Source of the DNA: Bispira polyomma
Taxonomy: Eukaryota
Length of the DNA: 64,000 nucleotides
Assembly (NCBI GenBank): GCA_965649765.1
Contig: OZ287751.1
Location: 40,610,001 to 40,674,000 of the forward strand
Reading direction: 5' to 3'
Shown here: positions 34,162 through 45,532 of the stretch, one piece after another
How the letters are laid out: each line of letters starts with the position of its first letter
How positions within the stretch are numbered: the first letter of the stretch is position 1
Program-made: the position numbers and the translations under genes
The notes under the pieces: generated by a model
Told to the model about the DNA's origin: nothing
Database searches by the model: none
The model's input: only the letters and a program-made list of their open reading frames with translations

Positions 34162-36101
34162 AGTTTTAATTATCACACCACTCATTGTATTCTCTTAATA
34201 GGTGCCAAGTTGTAGTAGTTTTGTCATAGTGAGCCTTTTTTTCTTTCAACATCATCTCACCATTTTTCATTATGTTTAATTAGGTCCTCCAGCAACAATT
34301 AATTTGAACAATATAAGAATTTTTTGGGTATAACATTATCTCTGCATTTTTTTTTTTTTTTTTTTTTTTTAACTTTGTATACACACGGTTATATTTTATT
34401 CAAAGCTACACACATTAATTCCATATGCTTCCAGTTGAAACCTTTTTTTTTTTCTTTTAAACATCTGCACAAAACTTTTAGTATCAAAAAAAATCTTCAT
34501 CAAAACAAAAAATTGGGGAGAAAACAATATTACAGCAAAGAAAGAAAGACAATAAATCGAGTAGCTATCAGGTAACACGTGTGTGTAATGTTCACTGGTT
34601 GCCAATTGTATAAAAACACTTCCTTACACGACGTTGTATTATTTTGATTCATGGCCATATATATATACTCCCTATTGAAAACTAAAACAAAAGAATGTTG
34701 TTAATAAGAGGTTTTTTATGAAACAGTTTCCAACAATCAGTTTTTATGATTTCTTTAATTAGTATCCCCATTTTCTGTCTGTAAAGATATGTCTTTTCAC
34801 ATTTAGTCCATTTGTTATATTCCATGGAAGATGTATTGCCTATTAGAAGTATGGGTTTGTCTTTGATATAGGTAAGTCAATCCATTGTGTTATGATACTT
34901 TGGTATTTACAACTTTAGAGTTAAACTAAAAAGAAGAGATTTCTATTATGTATTTTTCTGTTATGGTTTCTATTCTTTATCAAATCATACAGCTGCTGTG
35001 TTGATAGTTTATGAGTCCATATTGATAAAATGTTACAATAAAGGTCATTTCACAATAAAATATGGTTCCTAACACATACTTAAACTTTACTGCACTTGTA
35101 TCACCTTTGTTGTAAAACTGTGACCTGAAAATACCAACATTTCTTCTTTTTAACTGTTTGCATGCTACCTTGTTATTAGGTAGTTTACATTTTGAAAGGG
35201 GTGCCGCAGTTGAAAAGGGTGCCGCCGTCTTAGAAATAATATGTAAGGCCTTTATAGATTGGTTAGAACCAATCGAGCCATTCAAACTGAGGGGTATTAG
35301 ATTTTCGTGAATATATAGTGGCCATATCAACATTAGTGTATTTCACACTGTGTGCCTGTGTCTTTTTAAAAAGATAACTCTCGTCGGATATATGGGTTAA
35401 ACGGAAACTGTTCTTGTGAAGCCGTTTATTATTTTGTAACTACATTAGGTACAATGTTATTACCGTAAAACACAAAAAGTCTGATATTTACAAACATTCT
35501 TACTTTTACTAATGCATAAATAACATGAGTGCCTTGTGGTGAGTCTTCTTTCAGGGTAACTTGAATTCAGATACTTCAATTAGTAACCGTAATTTTTTTT
35601 GTAAGGTTTCATACACATATTTTTAGAGAGAAATAGCTTGCACCATGTTAATACTTCGGTATTGGCAGATATGTATCAATAGCCATTATTTTTTATAATG
35701 GTCTGATGCAGGATCAGAAAATAAAGCTTGATTATATATGAGAGCTTCATGAAGTAACAACAGTGCAAGTCTGATGGGCCAAAGTGTCATCAGTGTGAAT
35801 TAGTCACTTTGGGTGAGGTCAAGACTTAGCTTAGTATTTACATAAGCGTTTTCTTTTACTACATGGTTTGCTTAAAATAAAACTTGTATAAGATTTTTAT
35901 TGTTTGAAAATATCCACTAAATTAAAATGAAACACAGATAAAGCTCTAAATCCTACGGAGCCCCTTTTAGGACATGCACATTTTTTACACGCTTTGTATC
36001 GTTATGACAAGATCATACTGTTCTTTCAACTCAATTGGCTCATTATAACGAGATAGATCCTGTGTTAACAAGATCGTTTTGTTCTTCAAACTAAATTATA
36101 T

Positions 36102-38655
36102 ACCCCTGATCTACTATGCCGATTATTGCCCCCGATGATTACGATTATAAGATCGGGGTAATTATCAAGGAGGTTGTGAGATTCCAAAGACTCTTTGTTT
36201 CTAATCGGGGAGGCCACTGAGGTGTTCAAACATGTTTGATAACCTCTGCAAGCAGGGGCAAATATGGGTGGCACGGCCAATCAATCAGGGCCAATCGGGG
36301 CCAATCGTAACCTACTAACGACTTATGGTTACCTTCTAACGAGCTATCTTTTCAATCTTCCCCTAAATCATGTGAAATTCATCCCGACTTATCTTTCCAT
36401 CAAAAAGATAGTTCAGGTGCCATTAGGAATTATCTTTTCACCCCCCCCCCCCCCCCCCCTGGAGTTATTGAGTTATTTGTCAGACCCTTTGTTTTCCTCC
36501 GATTGAAAAAATAACTGAAGGATAAGTCATTTGGGAAGCCCTGATCGAAAAGATAGGTCGGGCCAAACAAAGGATAAGTTGCTGGTGCCAGCCAATTGAA
36601 AAAGTAAAGTTCTGCTCTGGCAAGGGATTGGACATGGAAGAAGTGAAGAAGTGGTTTCAGTCACAGAGGACAATCTATGGCATCAGGAAGTCCGGCCAGG
36701 CAACATCTGAGTTGAGCACTGGGTGAAGAACACTTCGACTTTTTTAAACCTCACATCTTACGACATGTCTCGAGAACGTCTGGCTATAAAGCCATCGCAC
36801 CTGCCTCTTTGTCCCGGGCTCCTGGAGAATCATCGACTCCCAAGGTGGGGTTTAAGTCAGACACAGACCAGGGCGCTGAAACAGAGATGGAGTCTTCCTT
36901 GCTGGTAGCATCCCCTGGGAGTACTTCAAAGCAGTCTTCAGTTTGTGTCAGATCAACCCCGAGGCAGCACTGTCTAATGAGCTGAAGGACATGCTGGCCA
37001 TATTGCAGGACACCATTTCAGGCTTCTTCAAGGACGCTATCAAGCCCAAAGCTGAGGGACCCAGGGGGCATTTCTCAACTGGTTGACATTGGAGGCCGAG
37101 ACTAAAATCCTAAAAGCATTTTCGACCACCCTTCAGCGTCTTGAGTTGCTGTAATTGTATTTTTATAAACCAAGTCTTTAGAGCAAATGCGTCATCTCCC
37201 AGGATGAAGTAGGGGACAGGGGCTCTGACGGGGCTAATGGTTTCAAGGGGGGAACTGATTGAGTGGTACTCTTTTTTCTCCTGCAGTTCAGATCTGTTAA
37301 AAATCTGGGCATCCGCTTGAACCTATGTCCCACAGGAAACGGTAATCCCCATCTACCTGGGTAAGCATGACAATTGAGTTACACCCCTTTTAGTTGAAGA
37401 ACTCGCTCCCACCTTTTCTCAGGCATCTAATAGCAATGTGTTTGCCATCTATGGCCCCACCCTCCCACCTACCCTCACCCACCCCCCAGGTTATTGGTAA
37501 TGTTCAACGTGTTCCAGAACATGGACTAGTCCTTCTTCTAGTCATCGGGGCTGGTGGGGCATGTGAGAAATTCTTTCTGGTACTTCTCGATGATTGCCTG
37601 GCAAACTTCTGGCACAAACTTGGTTATGGTTGACCTGCCCACTATGAATGAGTACTGCACCAATGTGTAGGACTCCCCAGTAGCCAAATGCCTCAAAGTG
37701 ATGGCTATCTTAAGTCCAGGGGTCAGTGCCTTCCTGTACCAGGTGGTGTGTCTCTGTATCCCATTCCTCACCCTCCTCTCCATCTCCTGGAATACGTCAG
37801 GGGGCATCCTGAGGAAATTGCGGTATGACTGGAGATCTTGCTGCTCCAGGCATGGCATGAGTGATGTGTAGTGTCAATGTTCTGCCCTTTCCTGAGTCAT
37901 GGCTTGATCCAGAACCTTGGCCTTGCCCTTCGTCTTCTGGCCACATGAGCCTTAGGCTGTGGATTCAGTGTTTCCCTTTGCCTTCTTAATCATCTTATGC
38001 TGCCTTCGATGTTCATATTAACCATCAGTTGTGCTTGCATGTAGGCAATTACAGCCCTAAGTACATTTGCTAGATTTATTATTCTTTGTGAAATCATGTT
38101 GATCACTTGACTTCGGAATTTAAATTGTTTGATTTAAGTTTGAACCCTCGTTTATATAGCGTTTGATTGAAACGGTACCTGCCATTTGTTATTACGAAGA
38201 TTTTGATCTAGATCAGCCATTCTATCGGCAGACTTATTTTAGTGTCCAACGACTAGATTGTAACGCCCTTACGACTTATCTTTTGGATCATAAGCAGTTC
38301 CAACAACATATCTTTGGCAATTGGGGAGGTCGGGAGCCCAAAAATGTGATCCTGACGACTACTTGGGCCGATCGATCGTAACGCTAACAACTTCTTGGGG
38401 GGTTTGGGGATTCCAACAACTTATCTTTACCAATCGGGGATGTTGGGAGCCAAAAAATGTAATCGTGAATACAAATTGGCCCAATTGATCGTAGTGCTAA
38501 CGACTTATCAGGGTGGTTATTTGACCTATCTTACAGATCGTGGTGGCGCATTTCTTCCGCCCTTTTTTAAAAACATTGCGGGGAAATGCTAAGGATTGCT
38601 CACGATTGCATAATCAGGGCCTCTCCCTGACCGTTCGTGATAGTGGAACAGCACC
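36102..38655 (-). mobile_element. Decayed PIF/Harbinger DNA transposon
   Basis: Contains a HARBI1-like transposase remnant. Right end ...gatagtggaacagcacc; the left end is only weakly complementary (13/21). It appears nested in a tacggagccc-type non-autonomous element that starts near 35953. Confidence 0.75.
36880..38097 (-). pseudogene. Harbinger (HARBI1-like) transposase pseudogene
   Basis: RRRARPRFWIKP; YRNFLRMPPDVF...KIAITLRHLATGESY...GRSTITKFVPEVCQAI (ORF 37538..37858); then AIDGKHIAI, DAQIFN, FILGDDAFAL and VVENAF, the DDE motifs, with stops and frameshifts. Confidence 0.85.
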
Positions 38656-39188
38656 AATACTGTTTTAGCAAGATAGATCCTGTGATAACAAGACTATTTT
38701 GTTATAATAAGATCTCCTGATTACATTATTTTCACAACTTCATTATCTTGTGGGAACAAGATGATAAATTGTAGGCATATAACAATCTTGTGAGAATGAG
38801 ATAATTATTCTGTGGGCCCGATATCATCTTGTGATAAAGAGTGTAAATAATCCCGATTAATATTGTAGTTACATCATATTTCTTGTTTTTTAGTATATCT
38901 GTGTTAAGAAGTTTGTAAATGCTACAAATAAAATGCTGAAAATAATATAGGAATAAAAAATACAAACAAGTGTTTTATGCGCATTTGCAAGGCACCACCC
39001 CAGTGGTGGAGTGATCAGTTCTAGGGGACCAGTCTAATTCCCGTTCACGGGGCATTGCGTAGTACTATATGAGCCTCGGCTGTCCAATTATTGATTCTTT
39101 TCAAACTCGACAGCAGAAGGAACAACTTCAACACAGAGTGCTCTCGCCTGCGAGGTCACCATAAAAGGGTGGCGAAATCACAAAGGAT

Positions 39189-39221
39189 GCATCGTGGTTC
39201 AGTGGTAGAATGCTCGCCTGC
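39189..39221 (+). other. 5' half of a tRNA-Gly(GCC)-like sequence, not a complete tRNA gene
   Basis: gcatcg-tggttcagtggtagaatgctcgcctgc matches the invertebrate tRNA-Gly(GCC) 5' part as I recall it (GCATCGGTGGTTCAGTGGTAGAATGCTCGCCTGCC) with one G missing. It ends in the anticodon; no T-arm or B-box follows. Confidence 0.8.
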
Positions 39222-39224
39222 GAG

Positions 39225-39500
39225 GAAATCATAAAGGATTCTTGTTTACATTCCTTTACAAAATTTTAGTACACTGGTTTTAATATTGATTGTGTCATTC
39301 ATATAGTATTAACATTGATCTATATTACTGTAACATTACAAAACACACAAAGGACGCGGATGAGGAAATGATAAAGGATTCTTGTTTACATTCCTCTACA
39401 AATTTTAGTACACTGGTTTATATTGATTGTGTCGTTGATATAGTATTAACATTGATTTATATTACTGTAACATTACAAAACACACAAGGACGCGGATGTT
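39225..39500. repeat. ~140-bp tandem duplication in the YR element leader
   Basis: ataaaggattcttgtttacattcc...cacaca(a)aggacgcggatg at 39231 and 39371. Confidence 0.9.
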
Positions 39501-39587
39501 TACATTTTGTCTCTATGTTTTAGTGTACTGTTTGTAGTCTTTTCTATATGTATTGTGCACTATATTACTGTAACATTACACATTACC

Positions 39588-41178
39588 ATGCCTAAAGTCA
39601 AGGTATATGGTTGTACCAAGTGTCTCACGAGGCACACTCGTCTGGTTGGCAGTAAATGCCAGGTTGGGTTGTCCGAAGATTTGATCACAGAAGCGACTGT
39701 ATCCGATGAGGAAACTGTTGAGACTAGTCCGGTTGGCGTTGATAGTTTGGTCGTGGTTTCGGGACAAATATTAGCACAACTTCAGGCTATGGGCCAGTTG
39801 ATGGAAAAACTTGACCAGCGAGTGTCAGTAACGGAAACCACTCTAGCATCAAACGTGGCTAAAACACACGTGGCTGCGGCTACTGCTTCCAGTAACAATT
39901 CTGCCAGCTCGAGTGAGGAAATAACAAGTATTGAGAACACTGTTGTCCCGAGTGTACAGTTTTTAAAACAGAGCACTAGCATTCAGAACCAAGTTGAGTT
40001 AAGGCTAGCCGAGCTCGCACACCTCAACGAGAACCCGGTTAAAGGTAAGATCAAGTTTCAAAAAGGGGGGGGGGGGGGGTGTTGATGTAATAGTGAAGCG
40101 TGTGGTTGAATGGCCTCAAAATCATGTCCTCTCCGGAAATTTTAAAGCTAGACCGTGTTATGATGACTTAGCTCTGAACCAGTGGGTCTGCGGATTCACG
40201 CGTATAATACAATACAAGAAATCCCCCGAAACCAAAGAGATCATGTTTGACTACATGGCCGGACTGATGGAGGACTCCCAGGATTTTTCCTGGGAGGCCG
40301 GCAAAGCCTGCCATGCGGTTGTACTCACAACCTTGGAAATGGACAAACTTAAATGGAGCGACGTCGTCAAAATTGACCGGCTTAGGCGGGCACATGCGCA
40401 GAGGCATGGCTCTGGCAGTGGTAGCTCCCAGGGTTCACTTGCAAAGGGCGTTGGGAAGAATCAAACGTTTACTAAGTCGGGTACAGCTAATTGCAAATTT
40501 TTTCAAGATGGGTCTTGTAAGTACCCCAGTAGTCAAAAAACAGGCACCACTTTTTTTAAGCATGTGTGTGAATCCTGTAGTGGAGCTCACAAAACCACCA
40601 ACTGTAGTAGAAAATCAGCAAAAACTAAGGGGCACTGCAGAAATGCAGTGGCTGAGAATTTTGTCCATAGTGGACAGTTTTACAAGACTGATTTTCAGGA
40701 CTTCCATTTGTTCAGCAGACCTGCTAGTATCAATTCGCATGTAAATAAAAGTAGTAGGGCGAATAAATGTAGTTACAGCGAGGTATTGAATCGAACACGG
40801 GGTCCTGACACAGCAAACAAAAGTCTCTTAAGTACAAAGTGCCCCCCTAGGGATAATTTCAATGGTACACAGCAGGCCAGGCGGGGTAAACATTTCAAGG
40901 CCGGTGTTAAAACTAATTGTCGCAAACTCATTGTACCCTATAAGTTCACCTCACACAGTACCACCCTGCACAAAGGCAAAACTAGTGGGAAAAACACTGT
41001 ACAGGGGGAAACTGAGGGCAAACTTGTGAAAGCTGTTATTGAAGATACAAAGGCACATGTGAATGCAAGCAATGACTTCACTGGGGTCCCTGTTTACAAT
41101 AGATTCGAAGTGCTACAAGATATAGACCAAATTGACATTAATGTCTCAGAGAATCCCATTGGGTTCTACTGTGTGTAA
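39588..41178 (+). pseudogene. Gag-like ORF1 of the YR retrotransposon, frameshifted at a poly-G run (~40064-40079)
   Basis: ATG 39588 MPKVKVYGCTKCLTRH...C. After the G-run: VKRVVEWPQN...WEAGKACHAVVL...W and a C-terminal Cys/His knuckle CKFFQDGSC...HVCESCSGAHKTTNC, then a low-complexity extension. Confidence 0.8.
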
Positions 41179-43119
41179 TCAAAGAAATTATGCAAAAAGG
41201 GCTTGTAAAACAGGTTCTGTGAGAAACGTTAAGGCTCTTACAGCTACAACGGCTCCTTGTAGAAGCACTGACACTGATAATATTACAGAAAGTGTTGAAA
41301 CTGACAAGTATGCTTTTGAGCTGAAGCAGAAGGTAAATAAAAGGGAACTGTTGGACAGAGCAAAAACTTGTGAAACCTACCGTGCTTGGCGTGCTCAAAA
41401 TAAAGTGGCCTATGGCTTCACACCACTGTCAGACTTGGGCTGTAGGGTGTGGGACCATGGCTCTGTAAATTACAGCTCTGACATTTTAAAGATGCATAAA
41501 TTACTGCGGGAGGATGGCAGACAAAATTTCAAAGATTTGCAAATACCGGTCCTTTCGCAGCTAAAACCCGAAAAGTGGGTTCGGTATCTTAAGAATTACT
41601 GGGATTGGCAGTTACCGTTACTTATTAAGTACGGCTTTCCCCTCGATGTCAGTCGTGATAACATTGATCAGTCACATGAAGAAAACCACAAATCTGCCAT
41701 TGACTATCCCCAACACGTGGACACTTATTTTACTGAGGAATGCAAGTTCGGTGCCATACTGGGTCCGTTTGCCAACCCCCTATAGATAACATGCACTTTT
41801 CACCCATCATGACGCGCAATAAGTCCAGCTCAGCCAACAGAAGGGTCATTGTAGACCTCAGCTGGCCTATTGGTCGGTCCATTAATGCAGGGGCTTCCAC
41901 TTCTAAGTATCTGGGGACAGAATTTTTGTTGTCCTATCCTTTGGTGGATAATGTAACTAGGGAAGTGGCAGAGCTGGGCAGAGGTTGTCACATTTTTAAA
42001 GTAGATATAAGTCGCGCATTCAGGCACATGCCTATAGACCCGGGGGATGTGGATTTGCTTGGTTTAAAGTGGGGGTCCTATTATCTGGACAGATCCCTAC
42101 CCTTCGGATATCAGAATGGGTCCACAATCTTTCAGCGAATTTCTGACTCGGTCAGATATATTATGGCACAGGAAGGCTTCCATATATACGCTTATATCGA
42201 CGATTATCTTTGCGCTGCTCTCCCCAGTAAAATTGGGAAAATATATAACAGATTACAGGCTCTGCTGACAGAATTGGGCCTGACGGTCAGTCTCAAAAAA
42301 CTTGTTCCTCCCAGTACTGAGGTTATTTGCCTAGGTATTTTGATAAACACTGATACTTTTACAACTTCTATTCCAGCGGAGAAATTGGAGGAGATCAGAG
42401 CATTATGTAAGCACTGGGAGGGTAAGAGTAATTGTACCAAGAGAGAATTGCAATCACTGCTGAGGTCCCTTCTGTATGTGTCGAAATGCATAAAATATTC
42501 TCGGGTATACTTAAACCGCATGTTGCAAATGTTGAGGGATAATCATAGCAAGAAACACTTCCCTATCAGTAAGGACTTTAAGAGAGATCTCCAGTGGTTC
42601 CTCACGTTCATGCAGCAGTTTAATGGTATCAGTTTCTTTGCTCATAGACCAACACATGCCCAGATTGAGCTGGATGCTTGCCTGACTGGGATGGGGGGTA
42701 TCTATGATAACCAAGTCTATAAGCTTAATATTCCGTCGGACATGTCTCAGGACAATATAGCGTCCTTGGAAATGCTCAATATCCTTGTAGCCTTAAGATT
42801 TTGGGCTTCGTCCTGGCAGGGCAAGCGTGTACTTTTCAAGTGCGACAACCAGGCCGTTGTCAGTGTGTTGACCAATGGTCGCACACAAGACCCACTTTTG
42901 GCAACTTACTCTAGGAATATATATATGATAGCCAGTCAGTTTGACATCGACCTAAGAGTGATTCACATACTTAAAAATAAAGTGGCTGATTTATTATCCA
43001 GATGGGACAAGACTAAGGACAATTTCAGACTGCTGCATGAATGGGTGGGCCCAGTAGTATGGATTCCCACACACAAAGACCTGCTAAATGTTGATACTAC
43101 CATAGAGCATGTATATTAA
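41132..43119 (+). pseudogene. Pol (reverse transcriptase + RNase H) of the YR retrotransposon, one frameshift near 41775
   Basis: YGFPL...NHKSA...GPF | SPIMTRNK...RRVIVDLS, KVDISRAFR, LPFG, YIDD, CLGI, then RNase H D-E-D-D motifs. Confidence 0.93.
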
Positions 43120-43156
43120 TTTTTTTTTTTCTCTCTCTCTTTATATTTTATATTAG

Positions 43157-44058
43157 ATTCAAATCCAGTGGGTGCATTGCTTACCAAGTTGGCTTGTAAC
43201 AGACTGCACACAGCTTTTGCTGCTTCTACCTGGAACGCCTACAGCAGCATGTTCAGGCTTTTTCTGGCATTCAACATCTTCATGGATTGGCAAATAAATC
43301 AGGTGAATGCGTCCCAGTTACTTGCCTACTTGGAGTTTCTAAATTTTAACGGTGTGGCTCCTGATTGAGATTTTTTCTGATCCCAGAATGGCCTATTATA
43401 TAAAGGCCCTACTGGTCAATAGACTTCTTAAGGTCAACCTAAAAAGTCTCTTCGACATCCCCCTGCTCTTGAACCTCATGGAGAAATTTTTAAAGCTGTA
43501 TATCTTACCAGTTTCTTCAATTTTCTCCGACTCTCTAACTTGTGTCCGCATTCTGTGGCTGGATTTTCACATCTGAAACACCTGGCCAGGGGGGACGTCA
43601 TGTTCAAGCCTGGTTATGTTATCATACTGGTTAAATGGACCAAAATAATGCAGAAATAAGACTCGGTTAGGTTGCTTTCCCTTCCTGCTTTACCAGGTTC
43701 TATTCTATGTCCAGTAAAGGCTATCAGGGCTGCCTTGGCTCTTGCCCCCCCTGGCCCTAATGCTCCCCTGTTTCAATACAAACTCAATTCCACCTGGATC
43801 CCTCTGACGGACTCCCGTGTTCGTAGCCACTTAAAGAACGTCCTTCAGTCGCTAAAGTTAGACAATTCCAATCTCACTTTTCATGCTTTCCGACGATCAG
43901 GTGCCACGTTCGCCTTCAATAACAATGTTCCCTTACAGGACATTCAGCGTCATGGCACCTGGACGTCAGATTGTGTCTGGCGTTATATCACTGACTCAGC
44001 TCAGGTTGGCACCCAGGTGGCTGACTCCTTCCAGGTGGCTATACAACGTCTACACTAA
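43157..44058 (+). pseudogene. Tyrosine recombinase of the retrotransposon, fragmented
   Basis: N-terminal AFAASTWNAY...F...F; FLRLSNL (catalytic R), KWTK, CPV, HAFRRSGAT and HGTWTSDCVWRY. Frameshifts and a stop near 43656. Confidence 0.9.
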
Positions 44059-44279
44059 CTTGGTATTTGGTGGTCTGGGACAATTCATGTCCCCTGTGTA
44101 TGACAGAAAATGTTTTTCAACAAACATAAATACATTTGTTTGGGGCATAAGGTAACCTTACATTTGGCTAGTACATAATGTACTCATCCGAATTTTCTAA
44201 AACCCTAATATAATTTCAGTGAATGAATTAATGCTTTTACACTAAAATGTTAAACTTAACTTTATTCAAATTATCACTT

Positions 44280-44515
44280 AGCTTATGGTAACCTCAAACT
44301 TTGCAAAAAATTATTTTCCTGATTTATGGTTACCTTAAGCACTTATGGTGCACTTTATGGTCACCTGAATTTATGGTTTCCTTAACCAGTTTATGGTAAC
44401 CTCAAACTTCAAATTATATTCCTCTTTATGGTTACCTGAAGCACCCATGGTATTTTATATGGTTACCTTAATTTATGGTTACCTTAAAATATTTGTCCAC
44501 TTTATGGTTACCTCA
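44280..44515. repeat. Cluster of ~10 ttatggtNacct motifs in the 3' region of the YR element
   Basis: ttatggt(a/t/c)acct at about 44283, 44323, 44354, 44390, 44425, 44457, 44472 and 44500, plus degenerate copies. Confidence 0.85.
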
Positions 44516-45532
44516 TGCCCCCCCTTCAAACTTAACTGTACATAGTAAATGTTAGCCTAATCTTTTACTAATAAAGGATTGTACCGCAATTGTTTCCTGT
44601 GTTCATAAGTAAACTCAACTCACTTATATGTAACTGGCCTAAAGGAACTGTTGAACAATCGATGGATATATGTAAAACAAACCTTTTTAAAAAATTAAAT
44701 GCCGATTATTTATTCAAAGCTCAGAATTTACTGGATATGAACATTTCATAAAAAAATATGTTAAGAAAACCTATTTTATTGTCATTACTCTGCTGTTTTT
44801 TGCATTAAACTTGGTTAAGATTATTAAATCTTTTCATTACAGGTACCCACTCAGGCCTGCATCAAGGATCTATCCTTTGACCCTCTGCTTCAAAGGTAAA
44901 CACTCTGACCACTAGACCACAGAGACCAATTGATATTTAACATGAATATTGTGGTATACGTGTATTAACTATTTCGTGACTGGGGAAATAGTATTCCCAT
45001 TGACTGACTGCGAGGAACTGAAGAAAAATAAACCAATGATTTTGAGGTGTCGTGTCCTGGACAACAAGATAGGTGTTGAAAGATTTATATTCAGCTAAAC
45101 ACAGAGTAGGATTTAACCCTTGCAGAACTACTATATCATTTCCTTATGCATAAAATGGCATGTTAAGAGGCATCGGTGTCTAATAACTGACTGAAAAGAG
45201 GATGACTATTAACTTCTTTAGTCTGCAACTGGGTATAGAACTCAATGCCAGAAGACTGCCATTTGAAGCCACTATGTATCTGTCTACACCTGGGTGTCAA
45301 GGCTGGGATCGAACCCAGGTCTTCTGTGTTCTCGAAGCCACAGTGCCAAATAATAGATGTTAGCTACATGTTGCATAGAAACCCAAACTACAGTTTATTA
45401 TTACAAAACTAGTACTATAATGCCTGCCATAATTTGAATCATAAATTTTTTGAAAGAGGCTTTAGTCTTAAGTCAAATGAAAAAAAAATATTTTAGTCGA
45501 TAGTACATTAGAGTATATTATAGTATTAGAGT

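Follow-up and report, generated by a model that had tools for sequence, protein, structure and literature searches.

A 5' half of host tRNA-Gly(GCC) in the leader of a young subfamily of Ngaro-like retrotransposons in Bispira polyomma

The element and its leader

The window, as the whole analysed stretch of 64,000 nucleotides is called here (positions 40,610,001 to 40,674,000 of contig OZ287751.1, assembly GCA_965649765.1), carries a tyrosine recombinase (YR) retrotransposon with a half of a host tRNA-Gly embedded in its leader (Table 1). The element encodes RT/RNase H and then a tyrosine recombinase, the match to the latter lying below Pfam's curated cut-off; the gag-like ORF has no Pfam match, and no methyltransferase domain was matched in Pfam by five frames of the window and five of copy L044, in which RT/RNase H forms one frame of 745 aa. 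Repeat structure and domain order fit a Ngaro-like element, an assignment drawn from these two sequence features.

Table 1. Features of the element and its leader, in positions of the window
Feature	Position	Strand	Remarks
A1 split direct repeat, 149 nt, element 5' end	38986..39134	+	Repeated as A2 in L049 and L053; TATA-like motif at ~39066
Second, partial tRNA-Gly piece (tRNA nt ~20-34)	39135..39151	+	Differs from the tRNA by one mismatch and a 2-nt duplication; adjoins the same GAGG
Type II-derived leader patch in type I backbone	39152..39300	+	Diagnostic sites
S1, left copy of 14-nt direct repeat	39175..39188	+	Sequence
tRNA-Gly(GCC) half, nt 1-34 lacking one acceptor-stem G	39189..39221	+	Contains A-box; in 13/13 copies
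Two tandem leader units of ~140 nt	39222..39498	+	Second unit starts GGAT/GAGG, no tRNA between
S2, right copy of 14-nt repeat	39226..39239	+	13/14 identical to S1; GAGG (39222-39225) between half and S2
gag-like ORF	39588..40630	+	Frameshift at poly-G run near 40065-40079; start homologous in sister subfamilies
RT/RNase H ORF	41126..43119	+	Two frames here; RVT_1 E=1.6e-11, RVT_3 E=5.9e-6
Tyrosine recombinase region	43150..44058	+	Broken here, start approximate; Phage_integrase E=2.2e-4
B repeat, ~583 nt, 3' end of this copy	44069..44651	+	B1 (~585 nt)/B2 pair in L049 and L053; 3' junctions

As a correction to the first-pass annotation, the element ends in this copy lie at 38986/38987 (5') and 44650/44651 (3'), and the half is therefore internal, ~200 nt inside the element. 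The element ends share ~1 nt with their targets, and 38986 marks the point from which the copies have unlike 5' flanks. The full arrangement A1-ORFs-B1-A2-B2 is present in two of 13 copies (L049 and L053), in which A1 recurs 5.8 and 5.4 kb downstream as A2 and a spacer of ~690 nt lies between A2 and B2 (6931-7619 in L049). Eight copies, including this one, from which A2, spacer and B2 are missing, have A-ORFs-B only, and three are cut off within pol. Eight of the ten copies with a 3' end, that at 44651 of the window among them, stop exactly where A2 would begin; such A-ORFs-B copies could come from recombination between B1 and B2 or from integration of a shorter circle. Inside the B repeat of the window (44150-44520) there is an array of short GGTTACC/GGTAACC palindromic motifs. 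Just upstream of the element, at 36000-38700, lies a minus-strand ORF (37538-37873) with a putative likeness to a Harbinger/PIF-type transposase, with subterminal motifs repeated at 36043-36347 and 38257-38703.

The half reproduces the host tRNA-Gly(GCC), as encoded in the same genome, without a substitution, short of one G from the GG at nt 6-7. The reading of the first-pass annotation, a tRNA-Gly(GCC) 5' part cut in the anticodon, is thus borne out by the sequence and by the host genes alike, and the poor match to the host tRNA that it had allowed for does not appear anywhere over nt 1-34. With the anticodon of the 71-nt host gene placed at nt 33 by ARAGORN, the half ends at its 3' side on the middle anticodon base, and at its 5' side on G+1, the mature 5' end, to within one base, as the preceding T also occurs in the empty site and leaves -1 undecidable. 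Its two ends being on RNA-processing sites points to capture of an RNA, and the half is RNA-derived and fixed in its subfamily. For the exact part of 28 nt, ~4e-10 matches would be expected by chance (64-kb window against ~60 tRNA types). The sense orientation and the distance of ~370 nt to gag reported earlier also hold (367 nt to the gag ATG at 39588), as do the positions of ctcgcctgcgagg, which occurs at the end of the half (39213-39225) and alone at 39143-39155.

Both junctions are bridged by contigs of two public runs, which come from one study, possibly on the assembly's own sample, and are thus not independent; an assembly artefact is rejected for the half. The 3' half of the tRNA, which could not be located at first, is missing from the element in all 13 copies: no exact word of 10 nt or longer was found in their 10-kb stretches, two full-length copies included. 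A scan of 38500-45000 against Rfam (E up to 10) gave seven weak matches and did not detect the half, and no significant RNA fold was seen for 39095-39260 (z=-1.28).

The order of the leader is partial tRNA piece, GAGG, 19 nt, 14-nt motif, full half, GAGG and 14-nt motif, whilst the nearest tRNA-less leaders, of type II, read GAGG, 19 nt, one 14-nt motif and an A/T-rich unit. The 14-nt motif is single in 19 of 21 tRNA-less leaders and was not recognised in the other two. The same 21 donor-type leaders lack the partial piece and the motif ctcgcctgc, and the base before their GAGG gives no terminal base matching the 3' end of the half (21/21). Since ctcgcctgc is absent from the empty leaders, the upstream motif is tRNA-derived, a second copy of the junction between tRNA and GAGG, and was not the site that drew in the tRNA. 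The left boundary of the recombinant patch falls at this partial piece, which is found in 12 of 13 copies (L050 has deleted it) and nowhere else in the genome.

Two leader units are present in nine of the 13 copies, and traces of both remain in the four copies with a single unit, so the two-unit state is likely to be ancestral. The half may have gone bluntly into a repeat that was already there, and the start of the next unit with no tRNA is consistent with this. No intermediate form of the leader that would order capture, recombination and duplication survives in the assembly.

Diagnostic sites, compared across four type I and seven type II loci, are 23 type II to 3 type I in the patch, and 97 type II to 349 type I over A, gag, RT and YR (Fisher p=4.9e-12). 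This pattern of sites indicates that template exchange between subfamilies took place where the tRNA pieces sit, presumably with the RT as its agent. The subfamilies that exchange the leader segment at 39152-39300 are ~75% identical in RT. Leaders of sister subfamilies (L093, L094 and L105) are independent tandem arrays of a unit of ~105 nt.

Distribution of the half and host tRNA-Gly genes

Contrary to what would be seen if the half were peculiar to this copy, a possibility that the first-pass annotation had raised against itself, the half is present in 13/13 close genomic copies of the subfamily. These represent ten independent sites, since four of them share one 5' flank. The four (L046, L047, L048 and L050, at G000:C2:18.11-18.34 Mb) lie in a segmental duplication with that common 5' flank, and three are cut at the same point of pol. 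Genome-wide scans with three exact marker patterns return the same loci, one pattern finding 12, as L050 has deleted that motif. The subfamily forms one clade, supported at 98/100 in an RT tree of 10 rows and at 100/99 in a gag tree of 12 rows, with terminal branches of 1–2%. The deleted G is common to all of them, which together with the single clade argues for a single origin of the half.

No tRNA piece was found in the leader of any of 68 other related loci, which are a sample of the top RT and DNA matches among 16,179 first-look candidates (eight from a leader search and 60 from RT or leader-motif matches) and include some without a complete leader and several near-copies of one family. 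Comparison of these loci by BLAST with a partial set of 37 host tRNA sequences, 13 of them with ARAGORN labels, gave one 16-nt match only, far from any leader. A scan for the D-arm motif, which detects 13/13 focal copies and 36/37 host tRNAs, gave 18 matches in the 68 loci where 23 were expected, with no convincing tRNA in a leader; three of the matches look like SINE heads and lie in flanks. Seventeen further short leaders, nine of which overlap the 68 loci, yielded matches at chance level only, a locus without the anchor motif having been dropped. Some of the relatives without a half have long open RT frames. The idea of a family-level priming device does not agree with this distribution. 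In a sister-subfamily copy (L023, ~2140-2300) a tRNA-like SINE is apparently inserted in gag.

Capture in a single copy was considered and rejected on the presence of the half in all 13 copies, and a SINE head was likewise rejected, as the half has an A-box without a B-box and is fixed in the subfamily. The same features bear on the earlier proposal of a borrowed Pol III promoter that would drive or insulate transcription of the element. The A-box within the half is intact, as such a promoter would need; however, no B-box within one mismatch occurs in the 395 nt downstream, so that the A-box stands without the second part of a type 2 promoter, a T4 run at 39264, 43 nt downstream, would end the transcript, and A1 already has a TATA-like motif. 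This use of the half is highly improbable.

The host genes are concentrated in an array at G000:C9:8193001-8303000 (L173-L183), with ~92 tRNA-Gly(GCC) genes in tandem at a spacing of ~965 bp, many of them with substitutions and many paired with a tRNA-Asp(GTC) gene on the opposite strand. All 92 array genes keep their 3' half and the seven dispersed genes are whole. Neither the form short of one G among the array genes nor an RT in the 110 kb of the array was found. Searching the genome with a 23-nt part of the half, allowing up to two mismatches, gave 110 matches, namely 90 array genes, seven dispersed genes and the 13 element copies (ten of the 110 lie beyond the matches listed, equal to the ten array matches counted beyond that list). 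For this tRNA, therefore, free-standing halves number 0 among 110 matches in 1.04 Gb.

Many bacterial integrases break tRNA genes in the anticodon loop, and the break in the half falls there as well, which had led to the suggestion of an att-like relic left by a recombinase that integrated into a tRNA-Gly gene. For this subfamily the suggestion can be set aside. The element ends lie 200 nt upstream and 5.4 kb downstream of the half, with ~1 nt in common with targets, the 3' half is absent in 13 copies, and the host tRNA-Gly genes are uninterrupted, with no RT in their array. Additionally, 23 flanks gave one weak match of 15 nt to tRNA-Thr (E=0.028), away from the junction.

How the half may have entered the leader

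The half is very probably the result of a one-off capture without present function, when all routes are taken together. Among these routes it is judged probable, if by a narrow measure, that the half was written into DNA once by the element's own RT, probably through template jumping, and then spread as a functionless passenger. The template would have been a processed tRNA half that was packaged along with element RNA of two kinds. While making the minus strand, the RT would have switched at GAGG from the element RNA to the half, read it over its whole length and returned at GGAT, and a slip between the two GAGG sites, later or at the same time, would have given the upstream partial copy. The position of the half inside a patch that recombined between subfamilies suggests that template switching did happen here. 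Moreover, the only capture of a tRNA-Gly(GCC) half detectable in 1.04 Gb lies in the leader of a retroelement, as would be expected of the element's own RT more than of a LINE aimed at random. An insert in an active element is more likely to survive, and this argument from the lack of orphan halves is the weaker for it.

Across 11 copies, two duplicates having been dropped, differing cells make up 9/363 (2.5%) of the half and 69/3310 (2.1%) of its flanks (p=0.57), a comparison that over 33 nt has little power and is mostly a measure of post-insertion decay. In this low-power test the half is thus no more conserved than its flanks. In seven of the 13 copies the half has no substitution against the host tRNA despite later or concurrent rearrangements, something that weak selection could also explain.

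The flanking 14-nt repeats speak against the element's own RT, as they are 13/14 identical with a gap of 4 nt and would pass the filter of 8–35 nt for target site duplications (TSDs) and of 15 nt for gaps published for tailless retropseudogenes (available text of PMC5322556). The half could then have been inserted by the endonuclease and RT of a LINE through target-primed reverse transcription into a copy that founded the subfamily, and would be a passenger in this case too. An insert of at least 30 nt, 3'-truncated in a loop and without a tail, is in keeping with a LINE, as are direct repeats of a motif that is single in nearly all tRNA-less leaders. On the other hand, GAGG stands between the half and the right repeat, and the end of the half shows no terminal match to the base before GAGG in 21/21 empty leaders. 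In most empty leaders a GC of 2 nt precedes the 14-nt motif, which equals the minimum of the published range of 2–18 nt (same text of PMC5322556), but it counts as a target match only if GAGG is a later addition. The tRNA-less GGAT/GAGG of the second unit suggests that the repeat may predate the insert, the genomic matches hold no free tRNA-Gly half, and the class is described, in that text, in therian mammals. A LINE is accordingly an unlikely agent.

Priming offers a third route. The half would have started plus-strand synthesis at GAGG on the minus-strand cDNA, survived RNase H and become part of the DNA by copying, and its embedded copies would now provide annealing sites of 33 nt and of 9–13 nt for the half. 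Copia and Ty5 are primed by a half-tRNA cut in the anticodon arm, with an antisense primer binding site (PBS) for initiator Met that is conserved across the family. Here both tRNA pieces are sense and the palindrome offers only 5 complementary nt, although sense is the orientation in which a retained plus-strand primer would be left. The two pieces also share their last base and its junction to GAGG. The A1 repeat is followed directly by the partial copy, and the second 140-nt unit opens, to within 1 nt, on the first base past the half. Annealing through the microhomology ctcgcctgc, as first proposed, fails on the 21 donor-type leaders, which have no pre-existing annealing site, that motif being missing and no terminal base matching in any of them. 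Relatives with long open RT frames carry no tRNA piece, and the conservation of the half, in the low-power test given above, does not exceed that of its flanks. Finally, a 2',3'-cyclic phosphate, which cannot be extended, is frequent at the end of 5' tRNA halves. A captured primer is therefore rated as quite unlikely, even with the primer of DIRS-1 stated to be unknown (available text of PMC7192593).

There is a slim prospect, in addition, that Ngaro particles package 5' halves of host tRNAs which their RT uses as plus-strand primers or template bridges, and that this subfamily froze one of them in its leader. If true, the subfamily would have gained, immediately behind its terminal repeat, a site to which the tRNA-Gly half anneals perfectly, and the half would be a first material sign of the way in which DNA synthesis is primed in YR retrotransposons. 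Priming would matter more than a passenger, with the primer of the DIRS order stated to be unknown in the source just named, but the family-wide comparison argues against it.

Retroelement cDNA is captured at double-strand breaks in yeast, and host repair may similarly have used the half or its cDNA to mend such a break in a copy or a circle of the element. Blunt junctions with 0–1 nt of microhomology and templated duplications nearby would fit end-joining. Repair of this kind is nevertheless very unlikely, as it leaves unexplained why the only capture sits in a patch recombined between subfamilies.

As a passenger, the half is a modest but clean fossil, which shows that a reverse transcriptase in the germ line of the animal met a cleaved half of tRNA-Gly. 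The patch around the half indicates that Ngaro-like subfamilies exchange leader segments, and the half itself serves as a diagnostic marker for one young subfamily.

Comparison with known systems

The att sites of integrases that target tRNA genes differ from this locus in that here the element end does not abut the half and the far end is without the other half. Half-tRNA priming in copia and Ty5 is alike in that a tRNA cut in the anticodon arm is associated with a retrotransposon leader, but the copy here is of Gly, in sense orientation and restricted to a single young subfamily.

Ngaro-like elements are described with split direct repeats A1...B1-A2-B2 and the order gag, RT/RH, YR, at least in the main texts of PMC9210276 and PMC4157794. 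The element studied here has the same split repeats and gene order, with no methyltransferase match; it differs from those descriptions in the spacer of ~690 nt before B2 and in that most copies have A-ORFs-B only. The word tRNA is absent from the main text of both papers and of PMC7192593. In the part of the literature covered, mostly at the level of abstracts and including PMC5006619, no report of a tRNA half inside DIRS or Ngaro elements was found.

Tailless retropseudogenes are described as L1 products of therian mammals, with 2–18 nt of target complementarity (Noll et al., 2015, PMC5322556; Schmitz et al., 2004, cited there). As far as the available text goes, they share with the half a 3'-truncated tRNA that ends in a loop, the lack of an A-tail and the flanking direct repeats. 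The locus studied here shows no target match or a minimal one, its TSD is questionable and free-standing halves of tRNA-Gly are missing from the genome, so that it is at most a candidate member of this class.

A close parallel in mechanism may be the chimeras of tRNA halves and LINE-1, which in the available text (bioRxiv 10.1101/2025.02.02.635956) comprise 21 loci where tRNA nt 1–37, mostly antisense, head a truncated insertion at its 5' end. For the chimeras in the same orientation that text proposes ligation of RNA or a switch of template. Both cases have a 5' tRNA half fused to a retrotransposon by reverse transcription, but here the half is sense, lies internally in the leader of a YR element and has spread to at least ten independent sites. 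The capture of tRNA halves, known for mammalian LINE-1, would thereby be extended to a YR retrotransposon that was still mobile afterwards.
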